Source of the DNA: Alphaproteobacteria bacterium
Lineage (GTDB): Bacteria > Pseudomonadota > Alphaproteobacteria > UBA6615
Assembly (NCBI GenBank): GCA_011087645.1
Contig: JAALLF010000001.1
Location: forward strand, 208,046-272,045
DNA: 64,000 nucleotides
Reading direction: 5' to 3'
A program made the position numbers and the translations under genes. Below the pieces are notes generated by a model, which ran no database searches, had not been told where the DNA came from, and worked only from the letters and a program-made list of their open reading frames with translations. This document shows positions 5,178 through 39,977 of the stretch, piece by piece (within the stretch, counting starts at the first letter, position 1; each line of letters opens with the position of its first letter).

Positions 5178-5945
5178 ATGGTCGATTTGGTCAATGAACT
5201 CGCCGGCAAGGTGGCGATTGTCACCGGCAGTGCCCGTAATATCGGCCGCGCAACGGCGCTAGAGCTGGCGCGAGCTGGGGCAGCGCTGGTCATCAACGCG
5301 CGCGTCTCTGGCGATCTGTGCGAGGAAGTGGCGCGGGAAATCACCGATGCCGGTGGCAGGGCGCTGCCGTTCGTCGCCGATATCACCGACGCGGCCGCCG
5401 TCGGGCGCATGGTCGAGGCGGCCCGGGCCGAATTCGGCGGCATCGATATTCTGGTTAATAACGCGGCGTTTCGCTCGCGCGTGCCGTTTGTCGATCTCGA
5501 CGACGAGACCTGGCACCACACGCTCGGCGCCGGGTTTCAGGGCGCCTATCTCATGTGCAAGGCCTGCGTACCGGACATGATCGAGCGCGGCGGCGGCGCG
5601 ATTATCAGTGTTGGCGGGGTGGGGTCCTATGCCGGCCAGACCAAGCGCACCCACGCGATGGCGGCGAAGGCGGGCCTCGGGTCTCTGACGCGCGGCCTGG
5701 CGATCGATCTCGGCCAGCACAATATCCGCGCCAACAATGTCATCGTCGGTCATTACGATACCGAGATCGCCGGCAGCGGTTCGGCCAAGACGTCGAATGT
5801 CGAGGATTTATCGTCAATCCCGCTGGGGCGTCTCGGCACGCCGCAGGACATGGCCGATCTGATCCGTTTTCTGGTCGGCCCGGGCGGCAGCTATATCACC
5901 GCCCAGACCATCCACAGCAACGGCGGCTCGTTGAGCCCGTTGTAA
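5178..5945 (+). CDS. SDR-family NAD(P)-dependent oxidoreductase
   Basis: TGSARNIGRA dinucleotide motif, NNAA motif, and YxxxK-type active-site region. Confidence 0.85.
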   Translation: MVDLVNELAGKVAIVTGSARNIGRATALELARAGAALVINARVSGDLCEEVAREITDAGGRALPFVADITDAAAVGRMVEAARAEFGGIDILVNNAAFRSRVPFVDLDDETWHHTLGAGFQGAYLMCKACVPDMIERGGGAIISVGGVGSYAGQTKRTHAMAAKAGLGSLTRGLAIDLGQHNIRANNVIVGHYDTEIAGSGSAKTSNVEDLSSIPLGRLGTPQDMADLIRFLVGPGGSYITAQTIHSNGGSLSPL

Positions 5946-6060
5946 AGAAAACGCGACACGGCACGCGAATTATTATCGGCACCTGCATATGTGCGCTGCA
6001 ATCGATGACGTTCGCCCATTCCAGCGGTAAGATGCGCCAACGCATCAGAGAGAGGCTGCC

Positions 6061-6390
6061 ATGTCGACAAAATTAATAGACAAAACTGCATCGCAGGCGG
6101 CGGAACGCGGGATCGGCAAATTCGACTTGCTGCACGAGGACGAAAAAACGCGGATCACCCATTGGGTTATCAAGCCCGGCGAGCAAACCGGCTGGCATCT
6201 GCATGATTATGATTACGTCACGATACAGCAATCTACCGGTCGTCTGTTCCTCGAACATGCCGATGGATCGACACGGCAAGTGGACTACACGCCCGGTGTC
6301 GCGCGCGCGGTATCCGCGCCGGTCGAGCATAACGCCATCAATGTCGGCGACGTCGATATCGTCGTCTTAGAGGTCGAATATAAGAAATAG
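6061..6390 (+). CDS. Cupin-domain protein
   Basis: 109 aa with cupin-type GWHLHDYDY ... VEHNAINVGD motifs. Confidence 0.7.
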   Translation: MSTKLIDKTASQAAERGIGKFDLLHEDEKTRITHWVIKPGEQTGWHLHDYDYVTIQQSTGRLFLEHADGSTRQVDYTPGVARAVSAPVEHNAINVGDVDIVVLEVEYKK

Positions 6391-6408
6391 CGGCCGAGCC
6401 CCCAGCAC

Positions 6409-7119
6409 TCAGGTTTGGAGCTGCGCGGCTAAGTCGACAAAATCCGTCGCCACCACATCATAATCCCTTTCAGCGGACTGATCGGTTGACTGACCGGAGC
6501 CATATTCGGTCGGCCGAACAACGAACGCAGTGCGCAGGCCAACACCGCTGGCCGCTATCAGATCGCCGTTATGGGCCGCCACCATCATGACCTCACCCGG
6601 CGCCAGATCCAGAATGTCGGCGGCGTTCCGATAAACATCGGGCGCCGGCTTATAATTGCCGGCGATCTCGGCCCCCAGGATTGTGTCCCACGGCAGACCG
6701 GCGCGCTTTGCCATGTCGACCATCAGCGACACATTGCCATTGGATAGGGTCACCAGAATATATTTGGTCTTCAGACGCGTGAGGCCGGAGACAACGTCGG
6801 GCCAGGGATCGAGGCGATGCCACATACGATTAAAATCATCGAGCGCAGCCTCGGATAGGCCGCCAACTCCAAAGTCGTTCAAAACTTTTTCCAAGTTCAC
6901 CCGATGCAGGATGTCGAGCTTCACAAAGCCAATTTCGCCGGACCGGACCCGCTCCATCGAGGGCTGGTATTCCGCCCGCCAGGCATCGGCGAATGCCGCC
7001 CAATCGAGCTCGAAACCGTGCGCCGCGCTAAACGCCGGCCCCATCTTAATAATCGAGCCGCGCCAGTCGACCACCGTGCCGAACACGTCAAAGGCCAGCG
7101 CTTTCACCCCGCTTGTCAT
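6409..7119 (-). CDS. HAD-superfamily hydrolase, haloacid dehalogenase type II-like
   Basis: N-terminal LAFDVFGTVVDW (HAD motif I with Asp nucleophile) and later GNYKP and HNGDL motifs. GAGGGGA RBS precedes ATG 7119. Confidence 0.8.
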   Translation of the reverse strand: MTSGVKALAFDVFGTVVDWRGSIIKMGPAFSAAHGFELDWAAFADAWRAEYQPSMERVRSGEIGFVKLDILHRVNLEKVLNDFGVGGLSEAALDDFNRMWHRLDPWPDVVSGLTRLKTKYILVTLSNGNVSLMVDMAKRAGLPWDTILGAEIAGNYKPAPDVYRNAADILDLAPGEVMMVAAHNGDLIAASGVGLRTAFVVRPTEYGSGQSTDQSAERDYDVVATDFVDLAAQLQT

Positions 7120-7163
7120 CGGATTTCCCCTCGTTCCGAACTCCCCTACGAACCGGCACGACT

Positions 7164-7892
7164 TCAAAATGTTTCGGCGAAGAAGTCGCGCATCATCCGG
7201 TAGGACTGTTGGCACAGTTTCTCGTCATAGACCTGCACCGGCGGATTATTCGCGCCTTTGACACAAAACGAATGCATCGCGTGGCCGAACATCATGAATT
7301 GCCAATCGACCCCCGCGCCGGTCAGCTCGTCCTCAAGCGAGTCCATCATCGACTTCGGGGTCACCGGGTCCGCCGACCCATGAAGCGCCAGGACGCGTCC
7401 ATTGAAATTGGCCTCTGAGCCCGGATCGACCGGGTTGGGCGCGGTGACATGAAACACCACCGTGCCCTTGAAGTCGCTCCCGGCGCGCGCTTGTTCCAGC
7501 GCGAAGCCGCCGCCCATGCAAAAACCGATCGCCCCCGTTTTATCGGTGTCGATTAAACCGCGCTCGGCGGCCCCGGCGGTCAGCACCTCATAGGCCTTGG
7601 CGCCACAGCCGAGGATGAGTTTAAGATCGCGGCGAACCCCTTGCGCACTCGCCAATAGCTCATCATCGCTTTTTTCCCGTTCACCGTATCCCACGCCGTA
7701 CATATCGGCGACCATCACCACGTAATCGCTGCCGGCGACCTCCGTTGCCATATCGAGGGAATGGCGACACACGCCAAACCAGTCGGGCTGCATGAACACG
7801 GCCGGACGTTTGCCCGCAACGCTATCGTCATAGACCAGCGCTCCTTCAAACTGGCGCCCGTCATATTCGTAAGGAATTTTTATCTCAGCCAT
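7164..7892 (-). CDS. Dienelactone hydrolase-family protein
   Basis: DLH fold with nucleophile motif GFCMGG and a C-terminal His region. Confidence 0.8.
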   Translation of the reverse strand: MAEIKIPYEYDGRQFEGALVYDDSVAGKRPAVFMQPDWFGVCRHSLDMATEVAGSDYVVMVADMYGVGYGEREKSDDELLASAQGVRRDLKLILGCGAKAYEVLTAGAAERGLIDTDKTGAIGFCMGGGFALEQARAGSDFKGTVVFHVTAPNPVDPGSEANFNGRVLALHGSADPVTPKSMMDSLEDELTGAGVDWQFMMFGHAMHSFCVKGANNPPVQVYDEKLCQQSYRMMRDFFAETF

Positions 7893-35609: not shown

Positions 35610-36377
35610 CTACCCGATCCAGGCGCCGCCGTTCACGTCGAGCACCGCGCCGGTGGTGAAACCGGCGCCGGGCGTCGATAGGTACAGAATCGCGTGGGCC
35701 AGTTCTTCCGACGTGCCGAGGCGGCGCACCGGGGTTCCGGCGGCGCGTTGGGCTAAATGTTCCTCGCTGTGGCGCCCCACCCGCGGCGTGCGCACCAGGC
35801 CCGGCGCCACCACGTTGACGGTGATGCCGAACGGAGCGACTTCAATCGCAAGGCGCCGGGTGAGGCCAACCACGGCGGCCTTGCCAGTGGCGTAGTCCAA
35901 CGATGCGCCGCGCGACGCGGTACGCCCGGCGACCGACGAGATATTGACGATACGCCCATAGCTGTTGCGCTTCATGATCGGCACCACCTCGCGGCTGATC
36001 AGGAACTTGGTGTCGATGTTCCAGCTCAGCCCCTTGGCCCACATCTCGTCGGTGATCTCTTCGATGTCCGGCGCGTCGAGGAACCCGCCGGCGCAATTGA
36101 CCAGAATATCGACCCGGCCCCAGGCTTCGTCGACCACACCCACTACAGCCTTCATGTCACTGGAGTCGGCGCACTCGCCGGTCAGAAACATAGCCTCCGC
36201 GCCGCTGTCTTGCAGATCGCCGACGATCCGCGCGCCGGCCTCCTGGTTGCGGCCAACGATGGCGACCTTCGCACCCTCAGCCGCGAACCGCTCGACGCAA
36301 CCCTGGCCGATGCCCGCCGTGCCGCCGGTCACGATGGCCACCTGTCCCTCGATGGAGGCCAGTTCCGATACCGTCAT
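35610..36377 (-). CDS. SDR-family oxidoreductase
   Basis: Motifs VTGGTAGIGQG and NCAGG, plus a YxxxK-type motif. GGGAGAG RBS precedes ATG 36377. Confidence 0.8.
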   Translation of the reverse strand: MTVSELASIEGQVAIVTGGTAGIGQGCVERFAAEGAKVAIVGRNQEAGARIVGDLQDSGAEAMFLTGECADSSDMKAVVGVVDEAWGRVDILVNCAGGFLDAPDIEEITDEMWAKGLSWNIDTKFLISREVVPIMKRNSYGRIVNISSVAGRTASRGASLDYATGKAAVVGLTRRLAIEVAPFGITVNVVAPGLVRTPRVGRHSEEHLAQRAAGTPVRRLGTSEELAHAILYLSTPGAGFTTGAVLDVNGGAWIG

Positions 36378-36509
36378 GTTATTCTCTCCCGCGAAATATG
36401 TTGGCCGCCATGCCGCCACATTCGCCAGCCAAATGCAATCGGCGGGTAATTGTGGCAATCTTCGATGGCGGCCATCGGGTCGCGGCGCACGAAAGATCAG
36501 AAGGGTCCT

Positions 36510-38249
36510 GTGCATATCGAAGCGTTGAGTTTACGCGAGGTCATCGTCTTTCTTGTCGCCGCCGGTGTCGTCGTCCCCCTGGTCCAGCGGCTTAAAGTCA
36601 GCCCGGTGCTTGCCTTTCTCGCCGTGGGCGTCGTCATCGGGCCCCATGGGCTGGTCCGCTTTGCCGATACTCTGCCGTGGCTTGGCTATGGGACGATCGC
36701 CGATCTGGAAGGGGTCCGCGCGCTGGCCGAACTCGGCGTCGTATTCCTGCTCTTCATGATCGGTCTGGAACTCTCTCTGGAGCGGTTATGGGCGATGCGG
36801 CGGCTGGTCTTTGGCCTCGGCGGCGCCCAGGTTGTGGTCACCGGCGCGGTGATCGCGGGGATTGCGTCTTTGTTCGACAATTCGTTGCCGGTCGCCACCA
36901 TATTGGGCGCCGGCTTCGCGCTGTCCTCGACCGCCATCGTCATGCAGATCCTGGCCGAGAACCGGCGTCTCGGAACGCGGACCGGGCGCACCAGCTTCGC
37001 CATTCTGCTGTGCCAAGACTTAGCCGTCGTGCCAATCCTGTTCCTGGTCGCCGCCTTCGCCGCGCAGAGCGACGGGTCGCTGCTGCTGGCCTTTGGCGGG
37101 GCTATCGGCCAGGCGCTGGGCGCGGTCGCCGTGATCTTGGTCATCGGCCGTCTGGTGATCCGGCCGCTATTCCGATTTATCGGCAGCGCCGCCAGCCGTG
37201 AGATGTTTCTCGCCCTCGTGCTGCTGGTAATCATCGGCACCGCCCTGGCGACCCAGAAAGCCGGTCTGTCCCTGGCGCTCGGCGCGTTCCTGGCCGGACT
37301 GTTATTCGCCGAGACCGAGTATCGCCACGCCATCGAAGTCGATATCGAACCCTTCAAGGGATTGCTTCTGGGGCTGTTCTTCGTCTCGGTCGGCATGTCG
37401 ATCGATCTGGCCCAGATCGCCGCGCAGCCGATTTGGCTGTTCGCTTCCGTCGCGGCACTATTCCTGGTGAAAAGCCCAATTATCTTCGTCCTGGCGCGGC
37501 TGTTCGGCGAACCGCGCTCGGTAGCGCTCGAAGCGGCGTTGCTGCTCGGCCAGGGCGGCGAATTCGCCTTCGTGATCTTCGGCTTGGCCGCCGGCTTGGG
37601 CTTGTTGCCGGCCGACACCGCCCAGTTCATGTTGATCGTCGCCGGGTTGACCATGATCGCCACCCCGCCGGTGGCCCACGCAGCGCGCAAGGCCGCGCGT
37701 GCACTCGAAGCGCGGGACGCGCGCCACGGCGCGCCGGCGGCCGATATTCCCGCCGATCTCGCCAACCATGTGATCATCGTCGGCTTTGGCCGGGTCGGTC
37801 AGTTGCTGGGCTCGCTACTCGACACCCAAGAGCTACCCTATGTTGCCTTGGATATCGACGCCAACCTGGTCGCGCGCTTTCGCACCCACGGCGCCAGCAT
37901 CTTTTTCGGTGACGCCAGCCGTCCCGAAATGTTGCGTAAATTTGGTGTCGAAGACGCCGCCGCCTTGGTGGTGACTATGGACAGCCCGCAAGCCGCCGAG
38001 CAGGTGGTCACCGCCGCGCGCGAACACTGGCCCGACCTCGCCATCTATGCCCGCGCCCGCGACACCGACCATGCCGCGCGTCTCATAGGCCACGGCGCCA
38101 GTCACGCGGTGCCCGAGACAACCGAGGCTAGCCTACAGCTCAGCGAGATAGTGCTGATGGGGGCCGGCGTTCCCGACAACGCCGCCCGCCACATGGTCGA
38201 GACGCGCCGCCAATCCGAGCAGGCCGCTATCGATGAAAGCCGATCGTGA
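36510..38249 (+). CDS. Monovalent cation:proton antiporter-2 (KefB/KefC-like) with C-terminal TrkA-N/RCK domain
   Basis: Colinear with E. coli KefB over the membrane domain and the IIVGFGRVGQ Rossmann motif. Probable GTG start at 36510 (AGAAGGG RBS); the ORF track extends back to 36450. Confidence 0.8.
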   Translation: MHIEALSLREVIVFLVAAGVVVPLVQRLKVSPVLAFLAVGVVIGPHGLVRFADTLPWLGYGTIADLEGVRALAELGVVFLLFMIGLELSLERLWAMRRLVFGLGGAQVVVTGAVIAGIASLFDNSLPVATILGAGFALSSTAIVMQILAENRRLGTRTGRTSFAILLCQDLAVVPILFLVAAFAAQSDGSLLLAFGGAIGQALGAVAVILVIGRLVIRPLFRFIGSAASREMFLALVLLVIIGTALATQKAGLSLALGAFLAGLLFAETEYRHAIEVDIEPFKGLLLGLFFVSVGMSIDLAQIAAQPIWLFASVAALFLVKSPIIFVLARLFGEPRSVALEAALLLGQGGEFAFVIFGLAAGLGLLPADTAQFMLIVAGLTMIATPPVAHAARKAARALEARDARHGAPAADIPADLANHVIIVGFGRVGQLLGSLLDTQELPYVALDIDANLVARFRTHGASIFFGDASRPEMLRKFGVEDAAALVVTMDSPQAAEQVVTAAREHWPDLAIYARARDTDHAARLIGHGASHAVPETTEASLQLSEIVLMGAGVPDNAARHMVETRRQSEQAAIDESRS

Positions 38250-38267
38250 TCGGCCTCGCTTAACCGG

Positions 38268-38603
38268 TTATTCGTTGTCGGCTAACGCCCGCATATTGAG
38301 AATGAAGCCGATTACATCGTCGGTTTCCTGCCGCGACAATTGCAGGTCGGGCATATTGCGATGGGGGGTCTGCAGAAACACCCGTAAGCCCAACTCGGTG
38401 ACCGCCGGATCGGCGGCGATCTCATCGAACGGGGGCGCGTCGGAACGCGGAATCAAAGTTTGCGTCTCGGAGACAAAGTGGCACTGAGCGCAAACCTCCA
38501 GCGCCAATTTCTTGCCGGCCACTATGTCCGCAACGGTCTGGCTCTGGGCGATTGTCGGCGCCAACAGGGATAGCGCAATGGCTGTCACGGGGAGAATTCG
38601 CAT
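38268..38603 (-). CDS. Small periplasmic c-type cytochrome
   Basis: Signal peptide and a single CAQCH haem-binding motif. Confidence 0.7.
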   Translation of the reverse strand: MRILPVTAIALSLLAPTIAQSQTVADIVAGKKLALEVCAQCHFVSETQTLIPRSDAPPFDEIAADPAVTELGLRVFLQTPHRNMPDLQLSRQETDDVIGFILNMRALADNE

Positions 38604-38789
38604 GGTTGAGCAACTCCTTCGTTAACGGACCGACGTGCGCGAACACCCATGATCAGCGCTCTTATTGATTAAAGACTGCGCGCCAAAACCGAGGAGTGCC
38701 TTGACGCACATCAATGGTCGCCCAGGGGCGAAAGGGGACAATCGAATCGCTCACTGGCGAACCGCCACCGCGGATAATGAGGAACAATC

Positions 38790-39128
38790 GTGATTAAACT
38801 GACCGCAAGATATTTTGGTGCAGCTTTCATTTTCGCTATGGCGATAGGCGTCAGCGGTACCGCACAGGCCGATGACGCGCGCGATCGCGCCGCCGGCGCA
38901 GCAGTGGCGCAAGAGCTGTGCAGCGGTTGCCATATTGTTGCCGAAGGCCAAAGCGGCCCGGTTCCCGACGGGCCAGCGCCCTTCCCAGTTATCGCCGAAC
39001 GGCCAGGACGGACCGTCGGCTATCTTCAGGCCTATCTGTCGGCCCCCACACCGCCGATGCCCCACGTACCGCTCTCGAAACGCGAAATCGACAGCGTCAT
39101 CGCCTATATCCGCTCGTTCGCGGATTGA
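38790..39128 (+). CDS. Small periplasmic c-type cytochrome (paralog of 38268..38603)
   Basis: Signal peptide and a CSGCH motif. The C-terminal half aligns with the convergent neighbour. Confidence 0.7.
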   Translation: MIKLTARYFGAAFIFAMAIGVSGTAQADDARDRAAGAAVAQELCSGCHIVAEGQSGPVPDGPAPFPVIAERPGRTVGYLQAYLSAPTPPMPHVPLSKREIDSVIAYIRSFAD

Positions 39129-39144
39129 GGCTTTCGCCAGCGAA

Positions 39145-39381
39145 AACAACGAACGCGGTAGGGTCCGCGCGACAGCGCAAGATTAAGACTCAATCCCGCT
39201 AAGCAGATATTCTGAGGTAGAAAATGGTGGGCGCGGTAGGGCCCGCGCGACAGCGCAAGATTAAAACTCAATCCCGCTAAGCAGATCTTCTGAGGTGGAA
39301 AATGGTGGGCGCGGTAGGGCCCGCGCGACAGCGCAAAATCGAGACTCAATCCCGCTAGCTACATTTTTCCGGCATAAGGAA
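39145..39381. repeat. Three tandem 78-79-bp direct repeats, each beginning with a copy of the 3'-terminal 17-19 nt of the adjacent tRNA-Val
   Basis: AATGGTGGGCGCGGTAGGG is found at 39223, 39301 and 39380 (the last is the true tRNA end). A diverged copy, GCGGTAGGG, lies at 39155. Each copy is followed by CCCGCGCGACAGCGCAAGATTA.ACTCAATCCCGCTAAGCAGAT.TTCTGAGGT.GAA. Confidence 0.8.
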
Positions 39382-39456
39382 TGGTGGGCGCGGTAGGGAT
39401 TGAACCTACGACCCCCTCGATGTCACCGAGGTGCTCTCCCGCTGAGCTACGCGCCC
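39382..39456 (-). tRNA. tRNA-Val (anticodon GAC)
   Basis: The reverse complement folds as a cloverleaf: acceptor GGGCGCG/CGCGCCC, D-arm GCTC-AGCGGGA-GAGC, anticodon stem CCTCG with loop GUGACAU (anticodon GAC), T-arm GTAGG-TTCAATC-CCTAC, and an encoded CCA. Confidence 0.85.
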
Positions 39457-39614
39457 CACCTTAACGTGGGCCGGATGCCTGATTTGGTCTGGCAAAGCGC
39501 GCGACAGATTGCGCTTTCGAAAACGGCGATCCGGTCGCGCGTCTTACAACGACAGGGGGTTGATGGCAAGCCTGCGCCGCGTCGAAACACGACGCCAGGG
39601 AGCTCGATCAGAGG

Positions 39615-39977
39615 TTAGGGGCCGACGGAGAGGATGCGGTCGACATTGTCGACTAGTTCGCGCAGATGAAACGGCTTCGACAAGACTTTGGTTTCGCCCA
39701 TCTCGACCCGCGCATTCATCGCCACCGCGGCAAACCCGGTGATGAACAACACCTTCAAGTCGGCGTTCACCCGGTTGGCCTGATGCGACAGTTCGATGCC
39801 ATCCATCCCGGGCATGACAATATCGGCGATCAGCAGCTCGAAAGGCCGCTCATGGACTTCATGGAGCGCCGCCAAACCGTCGGGCACCGCGATCACCTCA
39901 TGGCCGTTACGCTCCAGCGCCCGCGCCAGGAACTCACGCATGGATGTGTCATCTTCAGCCAGCAAAATGCGCGCCAT
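39615..39977 (-). CDS. cpdR: Single-domain response regulator, CpdR-like
   Basis: 120-aa REC domain, highly similar along its length to Caulobacter CpdR (ILLAEDD..MR.FL..ALE, DIVMPGMDGIEL, FITGFAAVA, LSKPFHLRELVD). Confidence 0.8.
   Translation of the reverse strand: MARILLAEDDTSMREFLARALERNGHEVIAVPDGLAALHEVHERPFELLIADIVMPGMDGIELSHQANRVNADLKVLFITGFAAVAMNARVEMGETKVLSKPFHLRELVDNVDRILSVGP

Follow-up and report, generated by a model that had tools for sequence, protein, structure and literature searches.

Tandem repeats that copy the 3' end of tRNA-Val(GAC) in an alphaproteobacterium, a possible counterpart of the Escherichia coli tyrT/tyrV trailer repeats

Repeat units that end in copies of a tRNA 3' end are found at the tyrosine tRNA genes tyrT and tyrV of Escherichia coli, and we compare with them here a tandem array that follows the tRNA-Val(GAC) gene in a 64,000-nucleotide (nt) stretch of the genome of an uncultured alphaproteobacterium (contig JAALLF010000001.1, positions 208,046 to 272,045; the whole stretch is called the window below). 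According to a passage in PMC3318445 (citing Bosl and Kersten 1991), one tyrT repeat unit encodes rttR, the rtT RNA. We checked this precedent on the E. coli K-12 sequence itself. The tyrT-tyrV region has a 178-nt unit in 3.1 copies with 95% matches, and the last 19 nt of tRNA-Tyr (AATCCTTCCCCCACCACCA), including the CCA, occur six times: both tRNAs have a copy, as does the spacer that separates them, and every trailing unit finishes with one. The annotated rttR has its terminus precisely at a CCA of this kind and contains tpr, a doubtful small open reading frame (ORF). As a positive control, the Rfam model RtT matched four E. coli units with 133-137 bits. RtT is predicted to fold such that the part derived from the tRNA is base-paired to a complementary stretch upstream of it, and the ..ACCACCA tail is left single-stranded.

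In the window, the repeated element is the last 17 nt of tRNA-Val (CCCTACCGCGCCCACCA, 39382-39398), which we call the core. Even when up to three mismatches were permitted, the core had three matches in the window, whereas 0.34 were expected and none of 100 shuffled sequences reached three. A repeat search found the 19-mer AATGGTGGGCGCGGTAGGG, which is the core together with the next TT, at 39223-39241, 39301-39319, and 39380-39398, with 100% identity in all cases and spacings of 78 and 79 nt. The array therefore holds two exact extra copies of the tRNA end. In a third copy, the core is reduced to the 10 nt CCCTACCGCG at 39154-39163; the likeness to the tRNA end stops after these 10 of 10 matching positions, with essentially none of the next seven in common. 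Tandem Repeats Finder (TRF) described the array at 39154-39357 with a period of 78, 2.6 copies, 93% matches, and zero indels. An earlier note on this DNA, made by a model from the letters, had already named the tRNA-Val(GAC) gene on the minus strand, the recurrence of its 3' end at 39223 and 39301, a degraded copy near 39155, a period of 78-79 bp, and a GC hairpin GCGCGG-TAGGGC-CCGCGC in each unit. All of these were recovered in our analysis, the hairpin as GCGCGG and CCGCGC separated by 6 nt in each unit.

Read in the sense of the tRNA, the order is tRNA with core, v0, C, core, v1, C, core, v2, C, CCCTACCGCG, and TTCGTTGTTTTCG, where v0 to v2 are spacers and C is a conserved part of 38 nt (TAGCGGGATTGAGT...TTGCGCTGTCGCGCGGG) that forms a 55-nt module together with the 17-nt core (Table 1). 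The boundary on the 5' side of the core is sharp: GGTTCAAT precedes the core in the tRNA, and GCGCGGG takes this place in the units. The units are not equally similar to each other. The two distal units are 95% identical, whereas the proximal unit has an identity of 71% to the reference unit, and of its spacer only the final 38 nt are in common with the distal ones. The view that every unit carries the same 60-nt tail thus holds for the two distal units and not for the proximal one. When the first 24 nt of the proximal unit were aligned with v1, 14 of 26 columns matched (P = 0.13 against shuffles), and homology is not demonstrable for this part. In the 55-nt module, the proximal unit agrees with the others at 51 of 55 positions (Fisher p = 1e-4).

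In our view, which we hold with moderate confidence, the 3' trailer of tRNA-Val(GAC) was locally duplicated in tandem, and the resulting array has an architecture of the tyrT/tyrV type. As the DNA between the core copies, with lengths of 62, 61, and 61 nt, is mostly the same sequence, it points to duplication and not to independent integrations. In the proposed course of events, unequal crossing-over or replication slippage would have duplicated the segment from the last 17 nt of the tRNA through the trailer, and a second duplication would have affected the distal unit, which would have resulted in two young units beside an older, tRNA-proximal unit. The proximal unit would later have had a ~20-nt patch replaced and would have acquired four transitions and one TT indel. 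The copy number is best accounted for by local amplification, either through slippage, which the earlier note had considered as one possible source of the copies, or through unequal crossing-over. Two accounts can be given for the end of the array. The 10-mer may have been part of the original terminator hairpin and may have provided the microhomology that seeded the first duplication, or a rearrangement that joined the cytochrome c segment to the array may have cut the last copy, as the junction lies within ~25 nt.

In a variant with a different first step, the entire tRNA-Val gene was copied in tandem and the copies decayed, so that the units are pseudogenes that kept the D-arm region and the 3' end, with the middle lost or replaced. 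An origin of this kind, from a duplication of a tRNA plus spacer, has been considered for the 178-nt tyrT units. With 78 nt, a unit is nearly as long as the tRNA with its 75 nt. In addition, GTAGCT-AGCGGGA in the proximal unit resembles the D-arm (GTAGCTCAGCGGGA) in a position collinear with the 3' end (p = 0.002, dinucleotide shuffles), and the other units match the D-arm block at 10 of 11 positions (p ~0.03), although this test was picked after inspection of the sequence. However, the 30 nt between the D-arm-like block and the 3' end have no likeness to the middle of the tRNA (p ~0.9), ARAGORN and the Rfam tRNA model (E up to 10) detected nothing in the units, and a perfect 17-nt end beside a wholly lost center is not expected from uniform decay. 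The evidence for an origin from whole tRNA copies is suggestive only, and we consider such an origin quite unlikely.

A further explanation would be an error of assembly, including a repeat that was collapsed or expanded during assembly. Short-read unitigs (run SRR10090331) do end within the array, but the breaks coincide with the unit junctions that are to be expected. Two records of the same organism that were assembled separately (an ENA scaffold and the NCBI metagenome-assembled genome GCA_012103305.1) have an identical array, and fixed substitutions among the three units define a unique path. The array is not an assembly artefact, and any residual chance of one is extremely small.

Table 1. 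Features of the tRNA-Val(GAC) locus, with positions in the window
Feature	Position	Strand	Basis or remark
Lineage-specific insertion, 1,132 bp, with both cytochrome c genes and the array	38250..39381	.	Comparison with L033/L034
Cytochrome c, 111 aa, inside the insertion	38268..38603	-	Pfam PF00034; tblastn 72% to 111-aa L028 protein
Cytochrome c, 112 aa, inside the insertion, convergent with the tRNA	38790..39128	+	Pfam PF00034
81-aa ORF, TTG start	39104..39349	-	Judged spurious
Terminator-like site, hairpin GCGCGGACCCTACCGCGT followed directly by TCGTTGTTTT	39143..39170	-	Terminator scan; -9.2 kcal/mol
Module 3, truncated, conserved 38 nt and first 10 nt of the core (CCCTACCGCG)	39154..39201	-	
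v2, 23-nt spacer, two positions different from v1	39202..39224	-	
Module 2, 55 nt, both hairpins and exact tRNA 3' end	39225..39279	-	
v1, U-rich 23-nt spacer, TTTTCCACCTCAGAAGATCTGCT	39280..39302	-	
Module 1, 55 nt, hairpin 1 GCGGGAUUGA/UCGAUUUUGC, last 17 nt equal to the tRNA 3' end	39303..39357	-	-21.9 kcal/mol
v0, 24-nt trailer straight after the tRNA CCA, unlike the later spacers	39358..39381	-	
tRNA-Val(GAC), intact, CCA encoded in the gene	39382..39456	-	ARAGORN; Rfam tRNA 63.6 bits, E 3e-13
Promoter-like TTGCCA-17 nt-TAAGAC upstream of tRNA-Val	39541..39569	-	Inferred from conservation

Relatives were found via their FGase, cytochrome c, and KefB proteins. All of them retain the arrangement of cpdR, a conserved promoter-like motif, and tRNA-Val(GAC), and the tRNA sequence itself is identical at 72-75 of 75 nt across five relatives (positions 909-983 in L007, 2204-2278 in L009, 36-110 in L012, 2199-2273 in L013, and 5774-5848 in L033). 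The sequence after the CCA differs in each of these five, with a similarity at about the level of shuffled sequences. The L012 contig stops 35 nt past the tRNA, and in the four relatives with contigs that continue, the downstream genes differ as well (FMN reductase, ferritin, P-type ATPase, and KefB). Judged from this comparison, the 3' flank of tRNA-Val(GAC), exactly at the CCA, is a recombination hot spot.

The closest comparison is possible with L033 and L034, the proteins of which are 77-95% identical to those of the window. Their gene order is CysMet, YDMC, SDR, KefB, 27 nt, tRNA-Val, cpdR, FGase, GNAT, and PAH, and the same genes flank both sides in the window. The distance from the KefB stop codon to the tRNA 3' end is 1,132 bp in the window and only 27 nt in L033 and L034. 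As the flanks are conserved, this difference identifies the array as the tRNA-side edge of a lineage-specific insertion. The earlier note had described a flank with two small cytochrome c genes and cpdR, and both cytochrome c assignments are supported by PF00034. It had also stated that neither an integrase nor an island is nearby. The first half of this statement stands, as no integrase was found by Pfam among the ORFs scanned between 19.8 and 55 kb, whereas the second is incomplete, as the array and the cytochrome c genes together make up the insertion.

The cytochrome c pair has a different context in relatives. A contig from the same sample as L033, with similar coverage, carries a pair that is 72-74% identical to that of the window at another location, with a CBS/BON gene between the two cytochrome c genes and an AAA_33 gene after them. 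This contig probably belongs to the same relative as L033. In the comparison with relatives (L028, L022, L024, and L033), the homologous pair lies at another place, with the CBS/BON gene between the two genes, a Lon-like gene on one side, and the AAA_33 gene on the other. Because of this different context, we infer that the pair in the window was relocated or acquired and that the CBS/BON gene was lost. The nucleotide homology to the cytochrome c locus of the relatives stops at 39131, 3 nt past the stop codon of the 112-aa gene; this stop codon at 39128 is 25 bases past the final 10-mer of the array. The base composition is flat over the region.

A direct repeat of a tRNA 3' end is also what a tyrosine integrase would leave, and the earlier note had read the array as the footprint of such insertions. 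In this explanation, an element with a preference for the 3' end of tRNA-Val left the units as attachment (att) footprints. The 61-nt fillers would be leftover arms of this element, in the manner of a cargo-less element with att sites at its ends, and would have been amplified by recombination between att copies, and the cytochrome c genes would have come in the same way. The re-duplication of the 3' end and the hot-spot character of the flank, which is hypervariable among close relatives, are in line with this view, as is the fact that the insertion sits exactly at the tRNA 3' end. In addition, a unit can formally be described as arm-core-arm, and CCCTA lies at the center of a 6-6-6 inverted repeat. 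When viral contigs were scanned for the 17-mer core, two IMG/VR contigs were detected, L038 (region 6522-7580) and L041 (region 383-1487), which contain a 34-nt fragment of the tRNA-Val end (GGGGTCGTAGGTTCAATCCCTACCGCGCCCACCA) and not the full tRNA. This fragment begins 23-50 nt downstream of a PF00589 tyrosine integrase gene, and the 14 nt in front of it (GCCTTCACACGGGT) are identical in the two contigs, the integrases of which are only 27% identical to each other. The position of these fragments beside integrase genes indicates that this tRNA end is a genuine attachment site in nature.

Other observations do not agree with an integrase origin of the array itself. No integrase was found by Pfam among the ORFs between 19.8 and 55 kb, of which a few short ones were left unscanned, and both flanks consist of syntenic core genes. 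The L038 and L041 integrases gave nothing in the whole window by tblastn (E above 2). The core copies do not bracket the inserted genes: with up to three mismatches, no further copy was present elsewhere in the window, including the KefB-side border, and the cytochrome c genes lie beyond the last copy. The comparison with relatives that the earlier note had proposed thus did reveal a hypervariable flank and an insertion in the window, but not one that is enclosed by the copies. The near-equal lengths of the fillers are unlikely to result from independent deletions. Furthermore, the identity block comprises 17-19 nt with a GCGCGGG 5' flank, as opposed to 34 nt with unrelated flanks at the integrase-linked sites, and the GCGCGG 5' flank was present in none of the six viral core matches. 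The unit itself was not found in phage, plasmid, and viral collections, and its junction with the core occurred in JGI metagenome contigs only as chance matches in coding sequences. Finally, the same architecture is present at E. coli tyrT, for which an integrase origin is not known to have been suggested. Taken together, we consider the att explanation unlikely. In a more special version, the 78-nt unit would be a miniature, cargo-less attP-type cassette (arm, core, arm) that was inserted repeatedly at tRNA-Val by an integrase encoded elsewhere, and the same trans-acting system would have brought the cytochrome c pair; this we regard as highly improbable.

The earlier note had also named a dispersed element as a possibility that should be checked, and the unit turned out not to be dispersed. 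The module was found nowhere else in the window, and a blastn-short comparison with the array-masked window returned only the tRNA's own 17 nt, with the rest at chance level, including a 10-mer in common with the tRNA leader (E = 3.3). BLAST searches with the array gave no match in 72,556 plasmids and 50,697 phage records, and a pattern scan of the IMG/VR viral contigs for the 38-nt part of the module gave none either. In one genome per species from 185,579 species, this 38-nt sequence had only one chance match, in a Patescibacteria coding sequence. The module-core junction had six matches in JGI metagenome contigs, all of them in genes encoding ..LSRGPYR.., and, judged by this shared coding context, these are chance matches. 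An Rfam search of the array returned no family besides tRNA. An element of the REP (repetitive extragenic palindrome) or MITE (miniature inverted-repeat transposable element) type was therefore rejected, as the unit is confined to this locus in the window and the collections scanned gave no real matches. The array looks specific to this lineage.

If the array is a duplicated trailer, it would be transcribed together with the tRNA. The motif ..CTTGCC...GTTGTAAGACGCGCGACCGG.. upstream of tRNA-Val is kept in every relative that was read, and TTGCCA-17 nt-TAAGAC, which is followed by GCGCGACCGG, is conserved 5' of tRNA-Val in the same relatives. A consensus promoter scanner did not call this site at 39541-39569; on the basis of its conservation, it is probably the tRNA-Val promoter. 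The module is predicted to fold alike in all three units. Hairpin 1 forms on the tRNA-sense strand only, because it needs G-U pairs. Hairpin 2 consists of GCGCGG-GCCCUA-CCGCGC, in which the tRNA-derived CCGCGC would pair with the upstream GCGCGG, and it is followed by a single-stranded CCACCA tail and then UUUU, which would copy the 3' processing site of the tRNA. Only the hairpin of the last unit passed the terminator scan, and it is the sole hairpin of the array with a T-rich tail that adjoins the stem. In the interior units, which did not pass the scan, 6-7 nt lie between the stem and the U run.

From this anatomy and the E. coli precedent, we propose that the tRNA promoter would drive transcription through the units until it stops at the hairpin and U-rich tail of the last one. 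The interior hairpins would be read through because CCCACCA separates their stem from the U run. As the hairpin-CCA-UUUU arrangement mimics a tRNA 3' processing site, the precursor would probably be cut into CCA-ended pieces of ~78 nt, by analogy to rtT RNA. We consider it most likely that the array arose as a by-product and is nearly neutral, with no more than a possible side benefit of additional termination and processing sites between a strongly transcribed tRNA and the convergent cytochrome c gene.

Several points speak against the proposed trailer duplication or any function of its product. A simple unequal crossover predicts that the proximal spacer is shared, but homology to the distal units is not demonstrable over its first 24 nt, and this mismatch makes an extra replacement event necessary. 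A pre-existing 10-nt match to the tRNA end downstream of the gene would be a rare coincidence. A single-unit ancestral state was not found among the relatives, none of which shares the post-tRNA sequence of the window. The folding z-scores of -1.1 to -2.3 are unremarkable. The six substitutions within the module are all loop changes or pair-preserving transitions, but the chance of such an outcome is ~0.2 by our own count, which was made on the sequences and the predicted fold. There is no statistical sign of selection on the RNA structure. Finally, some history of site-specific recombination at the array is conceivable, as the edge of the insertion lies at a tRNA end that integrases target elsewhere.

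Some further features of the locus may be mentioned. The 81-aa ORF that runs through the array was rejected as a real protein, as it has a TTG start, a low G+C content at third codon positions (0.60, compared to ~0.75 in neighboring genes), and no Pfam match above the cut-off, in agreement with the earlier view that it is spurious. It stays open because the period of 78 nt corresponds to 26 codons. The tRNA-Val(GAC) gene is the sole tRNA gene that ARAGORN found in the window. Three short-read contigs from different samples (L008, L010, and L011) all terminate within tRNA-Val at ...GAGAGCACCTCG, just 5' of the anticodon, which suggests a branch of the assembly graph in tRNA-Val, perhaps with another tRNA-Val isoacceptor or a strain variant as the branch partner. 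In L007, a gene for an insertion sequence (IS) transposase (DDE_Tnp_1, 1809-2978) lies between cpdR and FGase, and a DDE_3 and HTH transposase is present at 5536-6425. At the other end of the insertion, a palindrome GCCGATC-AC-GATCGGC at 38239-38254 overlaps the KefB stop codon and may, given its position between the convergent genes for KefB and the 111-aa cytochrome c, serve as a shared terminator. The longest ORFs of SDR (35610-36515, minus strand) and KefB (36450-38249, plus strand) overlap head to head; the starts of both are uncertain, as other assemblies call shorter forms of 255 and 579 aa.

If the proposed working model holds, the tyrT/RtT layout would not be an enterobacterial oddity but a recurrent outcome at tRNA genes, which would have arisen independently in an alphaproteobacterium with an unrelated sequence and at a different tRNA. 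The array would then be a second system for asking whether such trailer units are processing and termination modules, small RNAs, or by-products of recombination. For the mapping of genomic islands, it follows that a tRNA 3' end repeated in tandem is not automatically to be taken for a set of integrase scars.

Three known systems can be compared with the array. The att repeats of tRNA-targeting islands and prophages, including those of cargo-less elements with att sites at both ends, share with it the direct repeat of a tRNA 3' end at a variable flank that bears insertions, and they differ from it in all that was noted above, i.e., the integrase, the bracketing of the inserted genes, the fillers of 61-62 nt that are mostly alike, the length of the identity block, and the 5' flank of the core. 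The intrinsic terminators and tandem terminators that follow tRNA genes resemble the last unit with its GC hairpin and U-rich tail, and L033 has a small hairpin and a T run in the same place. Unlike the units in the window, however, such trailer terminators normally do not copy the CCA end of the tRNA, and the interior units are not terminators by the criteria of the scan.

The most extensive likeness is that to tyrT/tyrV. In both cases, a tRNA gene is followed immediately, on its own strand, by units in tandem, they end in the last 17-19 nt of the tRNA including the CCA (two full copies and one 10-nt copy in the window), they are present in about three copies, and a small doubtful ORF runs through the repeats. 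The predicted module also resembles RtT in that the complement of its tRNA-derived part lies upstream and pairs with it, so that a ..CCA tail stays single-stranded. There is, however, no homology in sequence or structure: RtT (RF00391; threshold of 45 bits) had no match in 38600-39700 even at E up to 10. The units measure 78 nt instead of 178 nt, the tRNA is tRNA-Val instead of tRNA-Tyr, one tRNA gene is involved instead of two, the last copy is truncated, and the host is an alphaproteobacterium and not an enterobacterium. By this analogy, the units are best filed as a non-homologous example of a tyrT-type trailer repeat, analogous but not homologous to RtT. As this layout has long been known behind the E. 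coli tyrosine tRNA genes, the array in the window is a curiosity and not a new kind of element.

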